From the UHGV virus genome UHGV-0186543: 46,602 nucleotides of DNA; one strand, written 5' to 3'. Below the pieces are notes generated by a model. The model saw nothing but the letters and a program-made list of their open reading frames with translations, was not told the origin of the DNA and searched no databases. Positions 33 through 12,201 of this stretch are shown here, piece after piece (the first letter of the stretch is position 1; each line of letters opens with the position of its first letter). The DNA comes from a virus. The position numbers and the translations under genes were made by a program.

Positions 33-821
33 TCAAAATGCTGAATCAGCAACGGATACAGCCGACTTTTCCCCCATTAGCATCAATTTATCCAGCGTCA
101 TACTTCGCAGGTTGTCGCTGTGGATCACCAGATACCCTGCCCGCTCAGCGATCTCTTTGAAAGCGTCAAAGGTCATCAGATGTTCGCCTTTGGCAACATG
201 GCGCATCCTGGTCACTTTTCCATTTTTGATAGTGGTGATAAAAGAAAAATCCGGAATGGTTGGCTGATTTTCATCGAGTAGCAGGCAGTGGATGTATTCA
301 ATCGCCTCTAACATTTGCGTCTGTGACAGTTGTTCTATGTGAGAGACGGCGAAACGTTGGTGAATCATGGTGTAGGCATCGGGATACATCATGCCTTTCT
401 TACCGACCAGCATATTAACGGCATCACGTAAGGGAGTACGGTCATCGGTAGTTGTACTCCGCCTCTCTGGGCGCTGGCTAAAATAACAATCTTCAAGCTT
501 TTCGAAAACTTCCCAAGCCTGTTCTGTTTCCAGCATTTTGGCATGGCGAGCTGCGCCGCGTTCTGTCCAGAGAATGAGGGATCGGGTATGTTTAGCAACT
601 GACTGACTATCTGTCAGTCTGTTTTTGAAGTCGCGTAATTCATTACCTTCCAGCTTAAAAAAATGCTTTCCTACGACAAATCTGGCGATGTTGCGCTTGA
701 AGTTTTGCTGGATACCATTTACTTCCGTGCCATACAAACTGGCAAGCAATTCAGTAGTGATGACGGGAAGTTGGTTATGATGTAGCGGAGAAAGGGATTC
801 CGCAGATATTTGGATTGTCAT
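33..821 (-). CDS. ant: antirepressor (ORF6N/Bro-N-like N-terminal domain plus KilA-C/Ant-like C-terminal domain)
   Basis: ORF 33..869. The N-terminal LPVITTELLASLYGTEVNGIQQNFKRNIARFVVGKHFFKLEGNELRDFK is typical of ORF6N antirepressors. Start placed at ATG 821 (GAGG 8 nt upstream); ATG 851 or TTG 869 are also possible. Confidence 0.75.
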   Translation of the reverse strand: MTIQISAESLSPLHHNQLPVITTELLASLYGTEVNGIQQNFKRNIARFVVGKHFFKLEGNELRDFKNRLTDSQSVAKHTRSLILWTERGAARHAKMLETEQAWEVFEKLEDCYFSQRPERRSTTTDDRTPLRDAVNMLVGKKGMMYPDAYTMIHQRFAVSHIEQLSQTQMLEAIEYIHCLLLDENQPTIPDFSFITTIKNGKVTRMRHVAKGEHLMTFDAFKEIAERAGYLVIHSDNLRSMTLDKLMLMGEKSAVSVADSAF

Positions 822-982
822 CGCAGTGGCCTCACTTAGTGTTTTTTTCATCACCACCAGCGACGCCAATCATCTGGTGGTGAACTGTGCAGGGTTGGCG
901 TAACCGGCTAAGTGAACCCGGCGCTTCCGCAGAAGCCCCCACACAGCCCACCATAATGCGAATGTGGCCGTGCCTAACACAT

Positions 983-1005
983 AAAAAAACCGCTAACGCG
1001 GCTAT
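983..1005 (-). terminator. intrinsic terminator upstream of ant
   Basis: On the minus strand, hairpin AGCCGC-gtta-GCGGTT is followed by TTTTTAT. It lies between the 73-aa ORF and ant. Confidence 0.55.
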
Positions 1006-1093
1006 GCGTCACTTAGATATCCGGGACGCCAATCCCGGCAACCGATTTTGCGGCTGCGCGGAAACTATAGCCCCGGGCTTTTTCTAAGTCAAT

Positions 1094-4110: not shown

Positions 4111-5171
4111 AATGCCCCTTCCCTGGTTTTACGCAGTGTTTCTGGCTTCATCAGGTAATCAAACCCTGCCCGCCAGCCGGTGCGATATTCGCCGCCGAAA
4201 TAGAAGTCTGGGGCGTTATCGCGGAATTTTTCGAAGTAGCCGATAAATGCGCCAAGAGTTTGCGTGCGCATATGTGCCAGCAGGCGCAGGATTGCCCGAC
4301 GGCGGTCAGTATCAATTTCAGCTATAGGTAGCAGGTCGCCCAGAATCTCGTTGTAGCCCTTCACAACTTCAGCAGGGTCAACGGCAGCCTCAGCAGTGGC
4401 CCACGTCTCAGCGTCAGCCAGGTATCCGTCAAACCGGTTTACGCGGCAAATGTTCGCAGGTTTCGGAACGCTTCCGCTACGACGGCGCCATGTCGCAATA
4501 ACCCAACGAATTACTAACTGAATCTCAGCCACGCTGTAACCAGCGCGGGTGGTGGTGGCAGTTAGCAGCATGACAAACGGTTTAACGTCGCGGCAGCGGG
4601 TACCGACTTTCTCGTTGTAGTAGTTCAGAGCTTTTTGAGCGTCAGCGAGAATGATTTCCTCGCCCTCCCCCTTTTGGGGGTAAGGGGGATCTTTTATCTC
4701 TGTAGTACTCTCTGTTGTATTCTCTGTAAGAGATTGGGTCATTTTGACCTTAGCGCATGGGTCAACTTGACCTGATGCTTGGGTCACATTGACCTCTTCG
4801 ATTGGGTCAACTTGACCTAATCGATTGGCCACAGGGAATGTTGTCTCTTCAATCTTACATAACTGGGCATAATTGATTGAATACCACTTGGTTTTATCCC
4901 AGGCATCACTGTTAAAGTTCCCAGTAAATACCACATTCAATTTTTCCAGATTGGCCAGCACGCGTTTTATTGTCGACTCGCTCCAGAACGGGAATTGTTC
5001 TTGCCAATCGGTCACACTGTTGTACACCCAGTGGCGATTTTCGAAGAAATTTTGAGATGAATTCAGCCAGTAGTGGATTTGCTGTAGAACGATGGCTTCA
5101 TTCAACCCTATAGTGCATGCCAACGTGGGCAGGACCTGAAGGGGGTTTTCGTTAATCAGCAAACGACTCAT
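4107..5171 (-). CDS. replication initiator / replisome organizer (lambda O analogue)
   Basis: Located directly upstream of dnaB with an ATGA overlap. Contains four internal iterons, like lambda O. Start moved to ATG 5171 (GGAG 9 nt upstream; the track start 5207 is TTG). Confidence 0.75.
   Translation of the reverse strand: MSRLLINENPLQVLPTLACTIGLNEAIVLQQIHYWLNSSQNFFENRHWVYNSVTDWQEQFPFWSESTIKRVLANLEKLNVVFTGNFNSDAWDKTKWYSINYAQLCKIEETTFPVANRLGQVDPIEEVNVTQASGQVDPCAKVKMTQSLTENTTESTTEIKDPPYPQKGEGEEIILADAQKALNYYNEKVGTRCRDVKPFVMLLTATTTRAGYSVAEIQLVIRWVIATWRRRSGSVPKPANICRVNRFDGYLADAETWATAEAAVDPAEVVKGYNEILGDLLPIAEIDTDRRRAILRLLAHMRTQTLGAFIGYFEKFRDNAPDFYFGGEYRTGWRAGFDYLMKPETLRKTREGAL
4735..4817. repeat. 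origin of replication iterons (4 x 15 bp)
   Basis: TGGGTCAttTTGACC (4735), TGGGTCAacTTGACC (4758), TGGGTCAcaTTGACC (4780) and TGGGTCAacTTGACC (4803). Spacing is 22-23 bp. Each has internal dyad symmetry GGTCA/TGACC. Confidence 0.8.
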
Positions 5172-5173
5172 AC

Positions 5174-5398
5174 TCAGATCTCCAGAGCTTCGGCTATCTG
5201 ACGACAACCGGCTTCATAGTCCGCATTGCTCAGCCCTTTGTCGCGCAACTCGACCTTCCTGGATTCATACTGCTCCCACACCGAAAGCGCGGCAGCCATA
5301 CGCCCATCAAAAATAGGTTGGATCTCTGCAACATGTGCCGGGCGTCCATTCAGGTGCCAGCCGTTACGCCAGGTAATGCGGTCAATATGTCTTAACAT
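5174..5398 (-). CDS. hypothetical phage protein (74 aa)
   Basis: The ATG is preceded by CCGAGGAAAGACCG. The stop lies 2 nt before the initiator gene ATG. Confidence 0.6.
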   Translation of the reverse strand: MLRHIDRITWRNGWHLNGRPAHVAEIQPIFDGRMAAALSVWEQYESRKVELRDKGLSNADYEAGCRQIAEALEI

Positions 5399-5437
5399 CG
5401 GTCTTTCCTCGGTATAAGTTAAACGCTGGTCAGGCGC

Positions 5438-5973: not shown

Positions 5974-6171
5974 CTAAGCTTTTTCATGTTTTGGAACATC
6001 GTAAAAAGTCGGGTCATATTTCAGTGCTCCGTTAGTGATATGGTCGAGTCGAGCAGCTCGCTTTTCAGGAACTGTTGCCCCCCAACGAGTAACCGCCACT
6101 TGAGATATACCCAGCACCTTGGCTGTGGCTGTCTTTGAACCAAAAAAACTAATAACCGTCTCTGTTTTCAT
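5974..6171 (-). CDS. Cro/YdaS-like HTH regulator
   Basis: 65 aa with HTH KTATAKVLGISQVAVTRW. Divergent from the repressor gene. SD GGAGGG upstream of the ATG. Confidence 0.8.
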   Translation of the reverse strand: MKTETVISFFGSKTATAKVLGISQVAVTRWGATVPEKRAARLDHITNGALKYDPTFYDVPKHEKA

Positions 6172-6182
6172 AATCCCTCCAC

Positions 6183-6235
6183 GTAACTTTTGTTAGCAAC
6201 ATAAATACTAACGAAAGTTATGTCAAGTTAACTTA
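6183..6235. promoter_or_regulatory. immunity switch: PR promoter plus operators
   Basis: Minus strand: TTGACA (6221-6226), 17 nt, TATGTT (6198-6203). Operators of type CTAAC-N4-GTTA at 6184-6196 (reverse-complement reading) and 6208-6220. Palindrome AAGTTAACTT at 6225-6234. Confidence 0.7.
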
Positions 6236-6239
6236 TATT

Positions 6240-6653
6240 ATGAGGATGAAGAATTTGATGCTTAGCGACCGTTTATCTCAAAGACGCAAACAGCTTGGTC
6301 TAACCCAACAACAGCTTGCTGATATGGTTGGAAGATCGAGTGTGAGCGTTTTTAAATGGGAAAGCGGACAAAATGAACCAAAGGGTCAGAACTTGCTGGC
6401 TTTGGCCAATGCACTTAAGTGTTCTGCCACATGGCTGCTTTTTGGTGACGAAGACCAGGCACCAACTCCGGTAGACGAATTACCAACAGAGCTGGATTCA
6501 CGTCAAAAAAGATTGTTAGAGTTATTTGATTCATTACCCGAGTCAGAAAAAGAAAAGCAACTAATTGAATTAGAAGATAAAGTTGAAAACTTTAATCGTT
6601 TATTTGAAGAGTTACTGGTTACCAGAAAGAAACTAACCCCCACCAAAAAATAA
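6240..6653 (+). CDS. CI-type repressor, XRE-family HTH, no S24 peptidase domain
   Basis: 137 aa. HTH LTQQQLADMVGRSSVSVFKWESG. Acidic, coiled-coil-like C-terminus. Too short for, and lacking, a LexA/CI autocleavage domain. Start could be 6240 (nearly leaderless) or ATG 6258. Confidence 0.85.
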   Translation: MRMKNLMLSDRLSQRRKQLGLTQQQLADMVGRSSVSVFKWESGQNEPKGQNLLALANALKCSATWLLFGDEDQAPTPVDELPTELDSRQKRLLELFDSLPESEKEKQLIELEDKVENFNRLFEELLVTRKKLTPTKK

Positions 6654-6656
6654 AAT

Positions 6657-6692
6657 AAAGGCAATGTTTTCAATGCATTGCCTTTATTTTTA
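6657..6692 (+). terminator. intrinsic terminator after the repressor gene
   Basis: AAAGGCAATG ... CATTGCCTTT stem (6657-6666 / 6676-6685) followed by ATTTTTA. Confidence 0.75.
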
Positions 6693-6701
6693 CCCCAAAT
6701 A

Positions 6702-6752
6702 CTAACCTTTGTTATAAAACGCCTTGCACATAAAATTACCTTTAGTTATATT
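6702..6752 (+). promoter_or_regulatory. candidate PL promoter with operator-like sites
   Basis: TTGCAC (6724-6729), 17 nt, TATATT (6747-6752). CTAACctttGTTA at 6702-6714 matches the PR operators. A weaker TTACctttaGTTA at 6737-6749 has an N5 spacer. Confidence 0.55.
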
Positions 6753-6800
6753 CATTCCATCAACAACGCTTACCCAGCGGCAGTTGTTCAGAAACAAGTT

Positions 6801-6823
6801 CTGACAGCCGGAAAGACGGCACC
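6801..6823 (+). repeat. 23-bp direct repeat, copy 1
   Basis: ctgacagccggaaagacggcacc, identical to 7254-7276. Confidence 0.9.
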
Positions 6824-7108
6824 AAATTTTGCGCGTCGGCGCCAACACGATGACAGAGGGAAAGACTTCACCGGCATATGGCACATGTGTCGAAGCGGTC
6901 TGGATGGAAGCGGAGCCTTAACGCGTTGTCTCCATAGCAGGTAGCCGGAATGTGCAAGCCACAGCCAGGTATGAGCGATTGATTCACCATCAAGGCGATA
7001 CGGTGTGACCACCAGGGAAGAGTCCTGGCTACAACACGAGAGCGCACTTCATCGACTCAACTTTGAGCTTTGTCGTTAAATTTTGAAATGGCGGAGTGCG
7101 CTCCCGGT

Positions 7109-7173
7109 TGTGGTGAACAGGTGTTTAACGGGAACTCCCTGCCCGTTACCCGGTTCGATTCCGGGCGCTACAC
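7109..7173 (+). ncRNA. tRNA-like element (T-arm plus acceptor-like stem), not a canonical tRNA
   Basis: CCCGG-TTCGATT-CCGGG T-arm at 7149-7165. 7166-7172 CGCTACA can pair with 7109-7115 TGTGGTG (two G-U pairs). The interior is only 33 nt, with no D-arm and a 9-nt central loop. Confidence 0.3.
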
Positions 7174-7253
7174 CGTAATTATTGGGACCCTCTGGTGAAA
7201 GCCAGAGCCTCTCGCAGAGAGGCGCAACGAGGAAAGACCGGGCATGACCAGCC

Positions 7254-7276
7254 CTGACAGCCGGAAAGACGGCACC
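7254..7276 (+). repeat. 23-bp direct repeat, copy 2
   Basis: ctgacagccggaaagacggcacc, identical to 6801-6823 and 453 bp downstream of it. Confidence 0.9.
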
Positions 7277-7430
7277 CTTTAGATGGCAAAAGACCCGCAC
7301 AAGGCGGGCCAGTTACCCCGAACGGCGACCAAACCATTCGGATATGGTGCAAGGGACCAACCTTACACCGAGGAAAGACCAACGACAGAGCCGCTGATCG
7401 GTTCTGAGTATACCCCACCAAGGAGTCGCT

Positions 7431-7751
7431 ATGGAAGCGCGCACCATCCCAGTAACACTCTTTATTAATTATGCAACTTCAACTTTCAGCCACGAAAAGC
7501 TGCTTGTTGCGACTGTTGATATGTCAAAAAATTTTCCAGACAGGTACATCCTTCTGGAAAGCCGCGAAATTGAAATTACCGTCAACCAGCCCCAGCCAAT
7601 CGACATCATCGGTTTACAGGTCGAGCAACTGCGTGAACAAAAACAGAAAACAGTCGCCGAAGCCCAACAGCGTATTGCTGCTATCGATGACAAAATCCAG
7701 CAGTTACTTTGCATCGAATACACGCCAGATACTGATGAAATCCCCTACTAA
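7431..7751 (+). CDS. hypothetical early-left protein (106 aa)
   Basis: ATG with AAGGAG 7 nt upstream. C-terminal coiled-coil-like segment. First gene after the long leader. Confidence 0.6.
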   Translation: MEARTIPVTLFINYATSTFSHEKLLVATVDMSKNFPDRYILLESREIEITVNQPQPIDIIGLQVEQLREQKQKTVAEAQQRIAAIDDKIQQLLCIEYTPDTDEIPY

Positions 7752-7781
7752 AGACCACTGACCTGTAATGAGGAAAGACCA

Positions 7782-9995
7782 ATGACCATTTTTAACGGCT
7801 TGTTAGAAGCGAAAAAAGGCGCGCTCAAAAACGGCGCGATCCCGGCGCTGGCCATCGCCATCGACGCCCCTAACAAAAAAGTTGCCGAGAACATCATCAT
7901 CGGCAAATTGTGGGAAGCCTACCCTGACCACGGCGACAACTATTTCAAACCTAAAATCTGGGAAGATGCCCCGGGCCAACCGCGCCCAGGCGTTGGTGAG
8001 TTTGATGAGACGTTCGCCACAGAACACAGTTTTGATGGCGAAAAATGGGTAGTTAACACCCCCGTTGTAGATAGCGGTTCAGCAGATATCGCACAGGTTA
8101 ACGACCTGATGAAACTGCCGGCTCGTGAACGATTCGCCGCCGTTCTGCTGTTCAGCCACGACGCCAACGAAGTCGACAGTGAATTGCTTGCGCAGACGCG
8201 TGAATACCTGGAGATGCTCGACAACAGTGATACTGACAGTGAGGATGAGGTTGACGCATTTAACCGCATCGTTCTTGATGCCATGGTGGCGTGTAAGCCC
8301 ATCGAGTACATGCATATTGCTGGATTGAATAATCTGGTACATGCAATTTTGGCAAGTTGCGATACCCAGGAACAAAACCCGACCAGTTGGACTATCTCCA
8401 AATTTATAAAAAAATGGGTAGAGAATCCCGGTAAACGCGATGAAATGCTGCCGGAGGTAAAACCAGAAACAGCATCCGCACGTCCTTACCAACAGACTCA
8501 CGCCACACTGGATCGTGAAATTGCCTGCGCCCTGTTACCCGTTGGCCCGGAAAAAATCACCCCCAGCGTCCTGAAAGCGGCAGACGAAATAATCAGCCAG
8601 GATCGGGAGGATTTTAAACGCTGGTCAATGGCCTTGCGCACAACGGATCAGATCCTTGCCTATGACCGCGCATCAGTATTCGGTGTTATTCAGAGCGCCC
8701 CCGCAAAAGACACGTACCACTTCCCACAATCCCTGCGCAGTCACATCGACAACTGGCTGCAAGCTAACGGGCAGCGTGATGCAAATGCTGTTGAAGAGAA
8801 GCCAAAGGAAGCAGCACCAAAGGATGATGTAAAAGTCACCAACCACGGCGGCGGACGATTCTCAATTGATGGGATGATGTCAGAAACACCCTCAAATCAT
8901 GGCGAAAAAAGCGAAGCTGCAAATGCTGGAGAACGTAGTTTGCAGCAGTTGCGTGAGCGGTTTGTCACGCCTCGCCATGTGTATGACGTACCTGAAAATA
9001 ACGCCGTCTCACAGAGGGAACCTACAGCTATTACCCCGGCAGAAGAGACTCCTCCACAAGAAAAACTTAGCGAGCAGGTAAAGGATCTGGTGCAGAACGT
9101 TGACGCGCTGGTTGAGCGGATCCATACCGAAGAGCACAAGCGGCAGAATGCAATCTCAGCTATCGAAACGGAGTTAAAGGACTCCGACGACACAGATAAC
9201 CTGGCATTGTGGAAGAACGTATTCAAAACCGATGAGCGCTTCACCAGTGCTTTCTCTCAGAACGGCGGCGGCACATCCATCAACGGCACTTATATAGCGA
9301 TGAAAGCGACTCGCGAATTTGGGCCGTTTGGTATTGGCTGGGGTGTAGAGGTGGTGGAAGAGCGTTTTGATAAAGGCGCACCGATAGTTCGCAAAAAACA
9401 GGTTGGTGAAAAAATAGAATGGGATCTGATTCAAGACGGTGTTGGCGGGTACCTATGTGAAATGCACCACACCATGAAAGTTAGAGTCTGGTACATATTG
9501 AATGGAGTGCGCGGTGAGTCCGAGGCTTACGGATGCACACCTTATATCTACGACACTAAATACGGACCAACAAGCGACGGCGAAGCGCCGAAGAAATCCT
9601 GGACGGATGCTGTTAAGAAAGCGCTATCCCCTCTCGGATTCAGCGCCGATATTTTCATGGGCCTGTACGACAATCCGGAATACCGCCAGAGGAATAAAGC
9701 TGAGTTTGATATCAAGAATGCCAGCGAGAATGCGGAAGATGCTACCCGTCTGCGTAAGGAACTGGATGAGAAGCTTATCAACGTTGCCAATACGCTGGCC
9801 TCCGCGGTAACCACTAACGAAGTAAACAAGGTATTTGGCCTCATCGCCCGCGAAGTGGATGTACACCGAAAAGCAGCAGAAGCCAAAGGCGATAAAGAAT
9901 ATTCATCGTATCTGGGATCGCGCCTGCGCCGTATCACCGACATCAAAACTGAACGCCTCGCCGCCCTCACCGCTGCACAGGAGCAAACCGCATGA
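7782..9995 (+). CDS. large protein with a C-terminal Rad52/Sak-type single-strand annealing domain
   Basis: 737 aa. The C-terminal part, YIAMKATREFGPFGIGWGVEV ... APKKSWTDAVKKALSPLGFSADIFMGLYDNPEY, follows the Rad52 pattern (YIEG..VI..AN..FG..GW ... KEAVTDGLKRALRSFG). The roughly 470-aa acidic N-terminal region is unassigned. Confidence 0.6.
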   Translation: MTIFNGLLEAKKGALKNGAIPALAIAIDAPNKKVAENIIIGKLWEAYPDHGDNYFKPKIWEDAPGQPRPGVGEFDETFATEHSFDGEKWVVNTPVVDSGSADIAQVNDLMKLPARERFAAVLLFSHDANEVDSELLAQTREYLEMLDNSDTDSEDEVDAFNRIVLDAMVACKPIEYMHIAGLNNLVHAILASCDTQEQNPTSWTISKFIKKWVENPGKRDEMLPEVKPETASARPYQQTHATLDREIACALLPVGPEKITPSVLKAADEIISQDREDFKRWSMALRTTDQILAYDRASVFGVIQSAPAKDTYHFPQSLRSHIDNWLQANGQRDANAVEEKPKEAAPKDDVKVTNHGGGRFSIDGMMSETPSNHGEKSEAANAGERSLQQLRERFVTPRHVYDVPENNAVSQREPTAITPAEETPPQEKLSEQVKDLVQNVDALVERIHTEEHKRQNAISAIETELKDSDDTDNLALWKNVFKTDERFTSAFSQNGGGTSINGTYIAMKATREFGPFGIGWGVEVVEERFDKGAPIVRKKQVGEKIEWDLIQDGVGGYLCEMHHTMKVRVWYILNGVRGESEAYGCTPYIYDTKYGPTSDGEAPKKSWTDAVKKALSPLGFSADIFMGLYDNPEYRQRNKAEFDIKNASENAEDATRLRKELDEKLINVANTLASAVTTNEVNKVFGLIAREVDVHRKAAEAKGDKEYSSYLGSRLRRITDIKTERLAALTAAQEQTA

Positions 9996-10561
9996 GCACC
10001 GCTATCGCTATTGCAAAAGAATATGCCAGCCTGATTGACCTGCTGGAAACCTCCGACGAACTGACGCCAGAGATGATCGCCGACACGCTTGAAGGTATGG
10101 AAGGAGAACTGGGAGACAAACTGGACGCCATGATGGTCATCTGCCGCAATTTACAGGGCAATGCCAATACCTGCGCTGAAGAAATGTCTCGCCTGGCTAC
10201 CCGTAAGACGTCCTTTGAAGACAAGGAAAAAGCAATCCGAAAGCATATGCTCGCCTGCATGCAAGCTGCTGGCCTGGATAAACTGAAAACCGCAAAAAAC
10301 ACATTTACTGATGCACAGGGGGCTATCTGGGTAATTATCGATAGCAAAGATAAGATCCCGGATGAGTATGAAGGCGTGTCACTTGTTGATGTAGAAACGG
10401 TTATTACACCAAACAAGCGAGCCATTAAAGAAGTGATTGAATCTGCGGAGGCGGTTGCCGCCGAAATACTGGCGCGTGGAGAAACACCACCAGCCGAGTT
10501 ATTAAACCCGGTACCAGGCGCACATCTGGAACGCGGCGAACGTTCACTGAGGGTACGCTAA
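9992..10561 (+). CDS. Gp157-family protein (Sipho_Gp157-like)
   Basis: 189 aa. The N-terminal YASLIDLLETSDELTPEMIADTLEGMEGELGDKLDAM and later IPDEY pattern are typical of this family. Overlaps the upstream stop. Confidence 0.6.
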   Translation: MSTAIAIAKEYASLIDLLETSDELTPEMIADTLEGMEGELGDKLDAMMVICRNLQGNANTCAEEMSRLATRKTSFEDKEKAIRKHMLACMQAAGLDKLKTAKNTFTDAQGAIWVIIDSKDKIPDEYEGVSLVDVETVITPNKRAIKEVIESAEAVAAEILARGETPPAELLNPVPGAHLERGERSLRVR

Positions 10562-10743
10562 TGCTTAAACTCACATTAAAGCGTGGTGACGCGGTTCACC
10601 TGGTACTTGCCGATGGAACCAACGGCATTATTGAAGCACGGAGCCGCTGCGAACTTGGGCTACACCTGCCAGAAAACATTAAGGTCACTCGGGAGAAATC
10701 GGCATTCCCCCCACCAGAACTGATTACGCCTAATCAGAAATAA
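10561..10743 (+). CDS. CsrA-like small RNA-binding protein (candidate)
   Basis: 60 aa. Ungapped alignment to E. coli CsrA as I recall it: ML.LT...G at the N-terminus and G...P...V.RE at positions 33-45, including the equivalent of the RNA-binding Arg44. TAATG start/stop coupling with the upstream gene. Confidence 0.45.
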   Translation: MLKLTLKRGDAVHLVLADGTNGIIEARSRCELGLHLPENIKVTREKSAFPPPELITPNQK

Positions 10744-10792
10744 AAACTCACCATCGCTAGCATTGCGATTCACCAGTAACCGGAGGATCACA

Positions 10793-11017
10793 ATGCTGCG
10801 ATGGCAACCGGGAGCAACTCTGCTCTCCGCATTTGATATCAAAATTGGCCGACTGTCGGCCAGCGTCAGGAAACAGGCTGTGACCGAGTCTGATATTGCC
10901 CGTGCCTGCAAGGCGGCAGATGACGCAATAAGCTACATAATGAGGAAAGACCATGAGAAGCGATCACGACATAATCACCAGAGAAGAAATGGTCGAGCTG
11001 ACGGGAAGCCCACTTAA
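10793..11017 (+). CDS. hypothetical protein (74 aa)
   Basis: ATG with GGAGG 7 nt upstream. The 3' end overlaps the xis-like ORF by 65 nt in another frame. Confidence 0.45.
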   Translation: MLRWQPGATLLSAFDIKIGRLSASVRKQAVTESDIARACKAADDAISYIMRKDHEKRSRHNHQRRNGRADGKPT

Positions 11018-11216
11018 ATCAAAGCAATGTGAGGCTCTTCGCCGGGCTGGAATTTTCTTCATGGAAAGGGCTGACGGGCACCCAAAAACAACCTGGGGCC
11101 ATTTCATGAACCCAATAAAATTTCGCAATTTACAGGAGGTGACGACGCGAAAAGATGATGAACCTGATTTTGGAGCAATATTTAATGGCCGGAAAGAGAA
11201 AGAACCCAGCAGATAA
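10953..11216 (+). CDS. excisionase-like protein (DUF4224-type)
   Basis: 87 aa. ITREEMVELTGSPLKSKQCEALRRAGIFFMERADGHP matches the DUF4224 pattern usually found just upstream of phage integrases. Leader TGAGGAAAGACC abuts the ATG. Confidence 0.65.
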   Translation: MRSDHDIITREEMVELTGSPLKSKQCEALRRAGIFFMERADGHPKTTWGHFMNPIKFRNLQEVTTRKDDEPDFGAIFNGRKEKEPSR

Positions 11217-12201
11217 CTGGATGCCGCCTCGTGTTTACCAGGGCAAAGCGGCCTACGAATTCAGGAATAAAGATAACAAAGCGATACGCCTGTGCGCATT
11301 GGATGCGCCACGATCAGCCGTATGGCTGGCATATGAAAAAGCGGTCGGTGACGAAAAAGAAAGAAATACTTTTCAGGCGCTCGCGGAACAATTCATGACC
11401 TCCCCTGATTTTATGGATTTGGCAGTCGAAACCAGGAAAGACTACACAAAATATTCCGGAAAAGTTCTGCCTGTCTTCGGGAAGATCGACCCGGATAAAA
11501 TCAAACCTGAACATATTCGGCGCTATATGGATCAACGCGGTTTATCAAGCCGAACTCAGGCAAACAGGGAAAAAAGCTTTATGTCCAGGGTATTCCGTTG
11601 GGGTTATGAACGAGGTTATGTCCAGAGGAATCCTTGTCAGGGAGTTAAGCAGTTTAAAGAGACAGCACGCGAACGTTATATTACGGATGAAGAATATCAG
11701 GCCGTTTATGAAGTATCTCCTGATGTTGTTCGCGTGGCAATGGAGATTGCCTACTTATGCGTGGCCAGACAGAGTGATGTACTTTCATTGCAGAAAGACC
11801 AGCTGTTCGATTCCGGGATCTACATTCGTCAGGGAAAAACCGGCGTTAAGCAAATCAAAGCCTGGTCGCCTCGTCTGCAGAAAGCGATAGCTCTGGCTCG
11901 TTCTCTGCCATTAAAACCGGGAATCAGTAGCCTGTTTGTGATTCATCAAACTACCGGAGGCAAGTACACCCGTGATGGTTTTAACTCTCGTTGGCGTGAT
12001 GTCAAAGCGGCAGCACAGGAAAAATATCCTCATCTGCAAATAGACTTCACATTTCATGATCTGAAAGCAAAAGGTATCTCTGATCTGGAAGGCAGCCTGG
12101 AAGAGAAGCAAGCAATTTCCGGGCATAAGAACCCACGACAGACAGCAGCATATGACCGAAAAGTTAAAGTAGTGCCCGTAGTTGGTGGCCAGAGAAAATG
12201 A
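11185..12201 (+). CDS. int: tyrosine site-specific integrase
   Basis: Start at ATG 11185 (MAGKRKNPADNWMPPRVYQGK). Catalytic-domain motifs ARQSDVLSL, HDLKAKG and GHKNPRQTAAYDR. Adjacent to the tRNA-derived att core. Confidence 0.9.
   Translation: MAGKRKNPADNWMPPRVYQGKAAYEFRNKDNKAIRLCALDAPRSAVWLAYEKAVGDEKERNTFQALAEQFMTSPDFMDLAVETRKDYTKYSGKVLPVFGKIDPDKIKPEHIRRYMDQRGLSSRTQANREKSFMSRVFRWGYERGYVQRNPCQGVKQFKETARERYITDEEYQAVYEVSPDVVRVAMEIAYLCVARQSDVLSLQKDQLFDSGIYIRQGKTGVKQIKAWSPRLQKAIALARSLPLKPGISSLFVIHQTTGGKYTRDGFNSRWRDVKAAAQEKYPHLQIDFTFHDLKAKGISDLEGSLEEKQAISGHKNPRQTAAYDRKVKVVPVVGGQRK

Follow-up and report, generated by a model that had tools for sequence, protein, structure and literature searches.

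Perfect 23-nt repeats in the early-left leader of virus genome UHGV-0186543 as probable copies of a widespread phage RNA hairpin

Virus genome UHGV-0186543, analysed here as a single window (the whole stretch of 46,602 nucleotides, nt), carries two exact copies of a 23-nt sequence, CTGACAGCCGGAAAGACGGCACC, on its plus strand at 6801-6823 and 7254-7276. Both copies sit in the leader of a PL-type, repressor-controlled early-left operon, and both are very probably near-consensus copies of a conserved, strand-specific RNA hairpin, designated here H1 and H3. The interior between them is a cassette of stable-RNA-type modules. The hairpin motif occurs across a wide range of phage genomes and is nearly confined to phages. 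The best overall explanation of the hairpins, to which a probability of roughly 0.6 is given, is that they are boundary modules recognised by a conserved factor. Antisense targeting, a transposition footprint and chance are not supported.

The repeat pair and the hairpin family

A first-pass annotation had described a perfect pair of 23-bp direct repeats 453 bp apart, and an exact search confirms this start-to-start distance; none of 100 dinucleotide-preserving shuffles contained any match to CTGACAGCCGGAAAGACGGCACC. With up to three mismatches allowed, no further match occurs on either strand of the 46.6-kb window. The flanks had been called unrelated, which holds only in part: both copies share one structured leader rich in GGAAAGAC motifs, and the similarity between 6794-6823 and 7247-7276 reaches 30 nt at 90% identity. 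A third, diverged copy of this 30-nt repeat lies at 6843-6872. Each 23-mer comprises a CUGACA flank, a GCCG stem, a GAAAGA loop, the CGGC return stem and ACC. The hairpins of the leader, with a small neighbour, are as follows.

6801-6823, plus strand: H1, the first 23-mer; stem 6807-6810 GCCG with 6817-6820 CGGC, loop GAAAGA at 6811-6816, flanks CUGACA and ACC.
6850-6872, plus strand: H2, the diverged third copy; flank AUGACA, stem GAGG 6856-6859 with CUUC 6866-6869, loop GAAAGA at 6860-6865, then ACC; abuts the non-coding RNA (ncRNA) block described below.
7254-7276, plus strand: H3, the second 23-mer; stem 7260-7263 with 7270-7273, loop GAAAGA at 7264-7269.
6788-6804, plus strand: small 5' hairpin UCAGAA-ACAAG-UUCUGA, from the sequence and the minimum free energy (MFE) fold; overlaps the CUGA of the first 23-mer.

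H1, H2 and H3 all appear as local hairpins in the MFE structure of the leader, whose fold has a z-score of -4.2 relative to shuffled sequences. The small 5' hairpin is kept in relatives of the BUCT709 type, with a 1-nt deletion in the loop.

The same hairpin recurs in unrelated viral contigs. The motif, defined as 5'-C-UGACAG, a stem of 4-6 bp, a GAAAGA loop, the return stem and then A, was sought in IMG/VR with the pattern TGACAG-N2-3-GGAAAGAC, which fixes the flank, the loop and the closing pair only. At least 120 loci were recovered, and in 104 of the matches listed a stem of 4 bp or more forms, its sequence varying widely from match to match. The same pattern applied to one genome per bacterial or archaeal species gave a stem in 18 of the 120 matches listed, a proportion near background. 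Covariation was assessed in 75 distinct, unfiltered matches in the 5-bp register, drawn from unrelated viral contigs. Paired cells make up 93.6% of the total against 75.7% in shuffles, and cells changed on both sides number 71 against 19; the observed pairing value was reached in 0 of 500 shuffles. Sliding the partners by 1-3 columns, as a control, gives 14-37% pairing. Among the non-Watson-Crick cells, G·U accounts for 27 and A·C for 2, and the hairpin is predominantly co-oriented with the nearest long open reading frame (ORF), both upstream (47:19) and downstream (57:14). The excess of G·U and the sense orientation indicate that the structure forms on the sense strand, that is, in RNA. Likewise, the compensatory changes in the stems around an invariant loop in unrelated phages speak for a conserved RNA structure rather than a DNA scar.

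The copies in the window are typical members of this family. A covariance model, R1, built from environmental viral contigs alone ranks H1 first in the whole window (27 bits, E 2e-4) and H3 second (26.2 bits, E 3e-4), and both have the UGACAG-stem-GAAAGA arrangement. The 23-mer agrees with the family consensus at every position, except that its stem is 1 bp shorter. The two repeats are identical because both match this consensus; their exact identity alone is therefore no sign of recent duplication. Rfam 15, applied at gathering and at permissive thresholds to the window, the leader and 30 related loci, returned only transfer RNAs (tRNAs) and the distant C4/isrK locus, and nothing for the hairpin or the interior.

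Genomic context of the family

Hairpins of this family are intergenic and lie in long non-coding regions and tRNA arrays. In 11 cases the hairpin ends 3-8 nt before a tRNA, and T-loop words are enriched 8-17-fold within 120 nt downstream (17-fold for GGTTCGA). In other phages, 14 hairpins lie 18-45 nt before a Shine-Dalgarno (SD) sequence and start codon. The settings are diverse: the early-left leader in mEp390, along with the same ncRNA block as in the window; and non-coding gaps of 400 nt in the N4-like phage Pokken, where the tRNA array follows, of 1.15 kb in the crAss-like cr55_1 and of 1.4 kb in Vibrio phages of about 60 kb. Lytic phage and cyanophage genomes also carry the hairpin. Three copies are present in Ralstonia QkW1, and in Acinetobacter phage Alexa two copies bracket about 185 nt downstream of the integrase. 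The 322-kb, jumbo-phage-sized IMG/VR contig L148 has five hairpins on its minus strand at 4129-4512, four of them in a tandem array at 78-nt spacing.

RNA modules between the repeats

The leader is about 670 nt long and has no conserved ORF. Its elements follow in the order promoter, H1 (at about +43), H2, an ncRNA of about 160 nt, a long stem, a tRNA-like element, H3, small hairpins and the first ORF at 7431. Transcription would start near 6759, as judged from the predicted promoter. The promoter and the modules of the interior are as follows.

6725-6752, plus strand: predicted sigma-70 promoter of the early-left operon, TGCACA-16-TATATT, from a consensus scan only; flanked by TAAC-N4-GTTA operator-like repeats.
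6872-7029, plus strand: structured ncRNA block; first hairpin CGGCAUAUGGCACAUGUGUCG, invariant core GGUAGCCGGAAUGUGCAAGCC at 6940-6960, terminal hairpin UGAC-CA-CCAGG-GAAGAGU-CCUGG at 7006-7028.
7031-7111, plus strand: long imperfect stem, 7031-7048 ACAACACGAGAGCGCACU with 7095-7111 AGUGCGCUCCCGGUUGU, from the inverted repeat and the MFE fold; apical segment of about 45 nt with GUCGUUAA.
7110-7174, plus strand: tRNA-like element; acceptor-like GUGGUG 7110-7115 with CGCUAC 7166-7171, then ACC; T arm CCCGG-UUCGAUU-CCGGG at 7149-7165.

The repeat pair thus brackets the tRNA-like element, as had been proposed, and also the conserved ncRNA of about 160 nt at 6872-7029. The core of this block, GGUAGCCGGAAUGUGCAAGCC, is found in at least 120 stretches in IMG/VR contigs and also in SPN1S, Tyrion, PAT1, SopranoGao, the P1-like SJ46 and D6, and mEp390. 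Its contexts vary: between terminase and portal genes in epsilon15-like phages, between a tRNA and ban in P1-like phages, and elsewhere too. In some cases it comes with a promoter-like site and a terminator of its own, and several of its helices covary; a search of Rfam with the block gave no match. The terminal hairpin of the block, which elsewhere is mostly UGACA-CCUCG-GAAGAGA-CGAGG, is a cognate of the GAAAGA hairpin, and a hairpin with the GAAGAGA or GAAGAGU loop terminates the block at 96 places among the loci examined.

Some further observations concern the block. A spurious ORF is annotated across it in the BUCT709 and mEp390 (gp36) records. About 200 nt after it, four IMG/VR loci (L033, L039, L004 and L368) have a second structured segment (AUCAGCCAUUCACGYUAAGCAUC...GGUGCUUAGCGGGACUGGAAGAGUUACCACUUGGAGACGGUCC...) that ends in a UGACAG-GAAAGA hairpin. 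The likeness of the terminal hairpin to an SP6 promoter (GTGACAC-N4-GAAGAG) is treated as coincidence, there being no AT-rich melting region and no phage RNA polymerase. The weaker echoes that had been noted after each repeat copy are all real, with causes that differ from one another: 'gatgacagag' (6850-6859) is the 5' flank and stem of H2, 'catatggcaca' (6876-6886) is the first hairpin of the block, and 'aacgacagag' (7381-7390) directly follows a copy of GAGGAAAGACC of the ribosome-binding-site type.

The long stem has counterparts in other phages (CAACAGGUAAGAGCAUUG...CAGUGCUCUUUCCGUUGUGG) that show compensatory changes. In SPN1S and the IMG/VR locus L015, the 3' strand of the stem (..GUU followed by GUGG..) runs straight into a real tRNA-Arg, whereas in the window it runs into the tRNA-like element instead. 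Long stems with variable apical 'cargo' occur in L002, L012, L015, L033, L039, L088 and L126; in enterobacterial phage arrays such stems stand between ncRNA, tRNA and tRNA-like modules and have the look of processing stems. The tRNA-like element itself combines a canonical T arm with an acceptor-like stem of 6 bp and one more arm (AACGGG/CCCGUU), and it has no D arm. ARAGORN found no tRNA or transfer-messenger RNA in the window, and the only Rfam match to the element was tRNA-Sec at 17 bits (E 3). The element is common to Pectobacterium phage ZF40 (2490-2560 of locus L007) and L040-type relatives; relatives of the BUCT709 type have a small hairpin in its place. From their sequence and predicted folds, the long stem resembles a putative processing signal of the ribonuclease (RNase) III type, and the tRNA-like element a candidate RNase P substrate.

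Relatives and probable history

The whole-leader alignment comprised BUCT708/709, the IMG/VR loci L022, L029, L050 and L061, and the closer loci L040, L076 and L104, which represent a prophage found in 449 complete Escherichia coli genomes. Conservation among relatives starts at CAUCAACRACG, just 3' of the predicted promoter. Where the sequence covers them, H1, H2 and H3 occupy the same positions in the aligned relatives, except that L104 has no H1 and the L040 type has an altered H3 loop. The stems around the GAAAGA loop differ: GCCCG/CGGGC, GCGG/CUGC, GCCGG/CCGGC and GCCUG/CAGGC occur in relatives, and GCCG/CGGC and GAGG/CUUC in the window. By position, H1 has orthologues with compensatory stems in L001 (GCCCG/CGGGC), ZF40 (GCGG/CUGC) and L187. 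The H2 position is likewise conserved, with GCGG/CUGC in the BUCT709 type and a score of 18.5 bits (E 0.026) in L001, as is that of H3, whose stem in L001 is GCCGG/CCGGC.

More distant relatives bear on how the arrangement arose. Homologues of the cro, CII-like and repressor genes are present in ZF40 (L007) and at the IMG/VR locus L187. In both, the ncRNA block is missing and the short leader carries one hairpin (GUUCUGACAGC..GGAAAGAC..), about 25-40 nt ahead of the first ORF; the 5' context of this hairpin is identical to that of H1. These single-hairpin relatives suggest that the cassette was placed beside a resident hairpin. The comparison suggests that a stable-RNA cassette, itself bounded by such hairpins, came to lie next to the resident one, probably through modular exchange at a functional motif and not through target-site duplication. 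The footprint of an insertion of about 450 bp, one of the possibilities raised in the first-pass annotation, is to this extent upheld by ZF40 and L187. As a target-site duplication it is contradicted by the close relatives, which keep the interior, and by the repeat being a functional motif also present in unrelated phages.

The close relatives diverge from the window 3' of the tRNA-like element, where they have an intrinsic terminator preceded by GCUGUGUKUAGUC. The window has no such element; the terminator is lost from its leader. The window segment 7165-7255 is absent from the 5,426 complete E. coli genomes searched. The string GCUGUGU(G/U)UAGUC is found directly 5' of intrinsic terminators after ncRNA arrays of this kind in L001 (about 4395-4445), at the equivalent sites of L040, L076 and L104, and in L002, L012, L043 and L368.

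Proposed role of the hairpins

As factor-recognised boundary modules, the hairpins would act in cis on the transcript, where a conserved factor, probably of the host, would recognise them, and they would mark the boundaries of RNA modules. Most likely they would help to set the ends of the excised stable RNAs and the downstream mRNA, or to protect those ends, working together with RNase III-type cleavage in the long stem and RNase P-type cleavage at the tRNA-like element. This narrower assignment, to processing or stability at boundaries, is one that we regard as possible at rather less than even odds. Within the same boundary model, the hairpins may instead keep transcription going through the long untranslated leader. 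The repeats had also been read as paired target sites for a trans-acting factor. An RNA partner finds no support (no complement with up to three mismatches, and unremarkable duplex energies), and a protein or other factor that recognises the hairpin stays the best guess.

Stable-RNA operons, such as rRNA operons, the T4 tRNA cluster with the species 1 and 2 RNAs, and the RNase III sites of T7, offer one of the closest parallels to such a composite. They have in common with the leader a structured RNA array, long imperfect stems and the abutment of a stem 3' strand on a tRNA 5' end. The leader differs from them in that a sequence-specific hairpin recurs at module boundaries and that the array sits in an mRNA leader, where its processing is putative. 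To our knowledge, no sequence-specific boundary hairpin is known in the rRNA, T4 or T7 systems.

A broader proposal is advanced tentatively, as a possibility just short of an even chance. The 23-mer may belong to an uncatalogued, very widespread and essentially phage-specific hairpin class that serves as a universal tag on phage ncRNA arrays, tRNA clusters and early leaders. Its reader would be a conserved host machine (an RNase, RNA polymerase with Nus factors, or tRNA-related enzymes) or else tRNA anticodon loops that pair with GAAAGA, and the leader would be a composite that includes a second uncatalogued ncRNA, of about 160 nt. If so, temperate and lytic phages of Proteobacteria, cyanobacteria and Bacteroidetes would share a short, easily searched RNA signal, which would mark long non-coding regions that annotation now leaves blank or fills with spurious ORFs. 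The sequences between hairpins would be candidate new phage ncRNAs. The identity of the reader would show how phages organise, process or protect arrays of stable RNAs and tRNAs, and how lambdoid phages without N control long early leaders. For the window itself, an unexplained perfect repeat would become a defined, testable architecture.

Several points weigh against the boundary model. About 80% of the copies have no adjoining detectable tRNA, and a role in tRNA processing therefore cannot be general. In the neighbourhoods of 99 motif-bearing viral loci no common protein family was found, the largest being an uninformative DNA methyltransferase (9 of 99). H2 is weak on its own, ranking fourth in the window by model R1 (12.4 bits, E 0.45). 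The GGAAAGACC copies at ribosome-binding sites are unpaired, a hint of a translational role that lies outside the model. The size given for the family is a lower bound only, and the conservation of the loop is partly built in because the search pattern fixed it. Finally, the literature search returned no description of the core sequences, of hairpins near phage tRNA arrays or of this hairpin, and publication outside the literature searched is possible.

Alternative explanations

The hairpins could instead be sites of the nut or boxB kind, which would bring in an N-like antiterminator or host Nus factors, or would counteract Rho directly, so that transcription reads through the leader and through the leader terminator of the relatives. 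This explanation is unlikely, although position and shape fit and lend it weak support. H1 is placed about 43-64 nt beyond the predicted start, much as nutL follows PL in lambda, and its stem of 4-5 bp with a purine-rich loop resembles lambda boxB (GAAAA/GAAGA). A weak boxA-like string, UGUUCAGAAACAA, precedes H1; the intrinsic terminator in the leader of close relatives is 3' of H1 and H2; the hairpin is likewise in the early-left leader of mEp390, ZF40 and L187; and long untranslated arrays are exposed to Rho. As in lambda, a short purine-loop hairpin tens of nt after a repressor-controlled early-left promoter is repeated in the early transcript and would presumably be used on the nascent RNA.

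The likeness to nut sites ends there. A scan of ORFs of at least 35 amino acids (aa) found no arginine-rich small ORF among the early genes, and the first ORF, phrog_2479, has no such motif, so that an N-like protein is lacking. Downstream of cro, on the minus strand, the leftward (PR-type) operon contains no copy of the hairpin. The string UGUUCAGAAACAA matches boxA (CGCUCUUA / UGCUCUUUAACAA) at 9 of 13 positions, lacks the CUCUUU core and forms its own hairpin at 6788-6804, and no candidate precedes H2 or H3. The hairpin has a six-base loop, GAAAGA, and UGACA conserved on its 5' side, whereas boxB has a 5-bp stem and a GNRA-like pentaloop. Outside lambdoid phages, the same hairpin is present in the genomes of lytic, N4-like and crAss-like phages and of cyanophages, and it also stands immediately 5' of tRNAs; we know of no N/nut systems in those phage groups. 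The window, moreover, has no leader terminator, yet all three hairpins are kept.

Another comparison is with the put RNA of HK022, a lambdoid phage without an N-type system, in which a structured RNA of about 70 nt with two stem-loops lies directly 3' of PL (PMC9378689). The ncRNA block is similar in being, here and in mEp390, a structured RNA just after the early-left promoter. It is set apart by description: it is about 160 nt long, occurs outside early operons as well (at terminase/portal genes, and before ban in P1-like phages) and has no detectable relation to put, and the hairpin is much smaller. A search of the literature on put-like RNAs found no description matching the hairpin or the block.

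Slightly less probable than a nut-like role is that of a translational operator or gene-start module. Here a factor that recognises GGAAAGAC would bind early ribosome-binding regions and the leader hairpins would titrate or load it; or else the unpaired leader copies would be remnants of gene starts that recombination at a shared GGAAAGACCAAUGACC linker left behind. The window has eight copies of GGAAAGAC(C) on the plus strand (6810-11442) and two on the minus strand (2682-2690 and 5400-5408), against about 0.6 expected per strand, and all ten are in the sense of early transcripts. Four stand in ribosome-binding contexts (the ORFs starting at 7782 and 10953, and the minus-strand ORFs starting at 5398 and 2680). 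The plus-strand copies nearest the leader hairpins are as follows.

7229-7239, plus strand: unpaired GAGGAAAGACC copy of the ribosome-binding-site type, followed by AUGACCAGCC.
7370-7380, plus strand: GAGGAAAGACC copy after the covarying hairpin GGUGCAAGG-GACCAA-CCUUACACC.
7770-7780, plus strand: GAGGAAAGACC as the ribosome-binding region of the 737-aa exonuclease-like gene, whose ATG is at 7782.

The arrangement GAGGAAAGACC-N-AUG also precedes xis (10942-10952, ATG at 10953) and the minus-strand ORFs 5174-5398 and 2270-2680. The distal leader of relatives repeats GGAAAGACCAAUG and CUGACCAGC several times, and the 14 hairpins that lie shortly before an SD sequence and start codon in other phages are also in keeping with an operator. 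Against it, the sense-strand enrichment of unpaired GGAAAGAC across 99 other motif-bearing loci is no more than about 2-fold (30 versus 12), hairpins before tRNAs and inside ncRNA arrays are left unexplained, no candidate RNA-binding protein was identified, and the mini-ORFs of the leader are not conserved in frame, with ATG changed to ATA in L040-type relatives. The earlier idea of duplicated gene-start modules is upheld in part, for GGAAAGACC, the half of the motif that provides the ribosome-binding context in at least four early genes.

It is improbable that the repeats are purely a footprint at the DNA level, as scars or substrates of the recombination that inserted a cassette of about 430 bp, with no function in RNA. 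Short conserved linkers are a classical route of phage mosaicism; single-hairpin relatives do lack the cassette, and the block and tRNA-like parts have a mosaic distribution over many genomic settings. A DNA footprint, however, does not account for compensatory stem changes around an invariant loop in unrelated phages, for the 27 G·U against 2 A·C cells or for the sense orientation. It would also have to do without a transposase, inverted ends or target-duplication logic, and in close relatives the positions of the hairpins do not vary. Recombination at the motif may still have produced the arrangement, even if that is not what the motif is for. A transposable element with target-site duplication was rejected, given the lack of inverted ends and transposase, the identity of the repeat as a conserved motif and the retention of the interior in close relatives.

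Immunity of the P4 CI or P1 C4 type, in which an RNA excised between the repeats pairs with both and thereby terminates transcription or blocks translation, is very improbable. The P4 seqA and seqC sequences flank CI, and P1 a1b1 and a2b2 flank C4. The first-pass annotation drew on the P4 case, and the P1/P7 C4 system (Rfam RF01695, RF03163) shares with it and with the window direct repeats in a leader around an embedded tRNA-like RNA that is probably processed, here perhaps by RNase P. The analogy fails on complementarity. The search for a complementary partner that had been suggested found none for the 23-mer in the window with up to three mismatches on either strand, and sense-strand GUCUUUCC appears only as the reverse of the minus-strand copies. 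A duplex scan that covered both strands stayed within background: the most stable pairing with the interior has -20.9 kcal/mol, where background values average -12 (sd 3.9) and their first percentile is -21.7. The C4 clan of Rfam has no match in 6600-7900 even at E up to 10, and the genuine C4/isrK/a1b1 system of the window lies elsewhere (873-1070, minus strand), upstream of an antirepressor gene.

Several other identities of the motif were tried and rejected. TGACA as the -35 element of a sigma-70 promoter has no -10 consensus downstream, and its first base is C, not T, in 49 of 119 copies. The UGA of UGACAG as a stop or recoding signal shows no frame preference. A match of GAGGAAAGACCGGGC to a P4 strand of RNase P RNA is not above shuffled controls (the M1 sequence used as query was approximate). 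A hammerhead-like string after the Acinetobacter phage hairpin, seen by eye only, is unsupported by Rfam. Neither Pas small RNA, Y RNA nor the hairpin promoters of N4-like phages, as published, match the motif.

The surrounding early region

The surroundings of the leader are the immunity and early region of a temperate phage of the lambdoid type. The leftward operon has a P22-type cro (5974-6171, minus strand), a CII-like gene, a replication gene and DnaB. On the rightward side, a helix-turn-helix (HTH) repressor of 137 aa (6240-6653) and its terminator are followed by the promoter-like site that ends at 6752. Downstream of the leader come phrog_2479 (7431-7751), the 737-aa exonuclease-like gene (7782-9995), Gp157, the excisionase (10953-11216) and the integrase.

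Half-palindromes of the form TAAC-N4-GTTA (TAACTTTTGTTA, TAACGAAAGTTA and TAACCTTTGTTA) occur at both divergent promoter regions, 6185-6235 and 6700-6750. The 137-aa HTH repressor probably uses these repeats as operators. A complete module is present on the minus strand at 873-1070, where Rfam identifies C4 antisense RNA, isrK and the c4-a1b1 target with 74.5, 80.4 and 52.9 bits, respectively. This module lies directly upstream of the antirepressor gene (33-869, minus strand) and constitutes an immI locus of the P1/Gifsy type, separate from the repeats.

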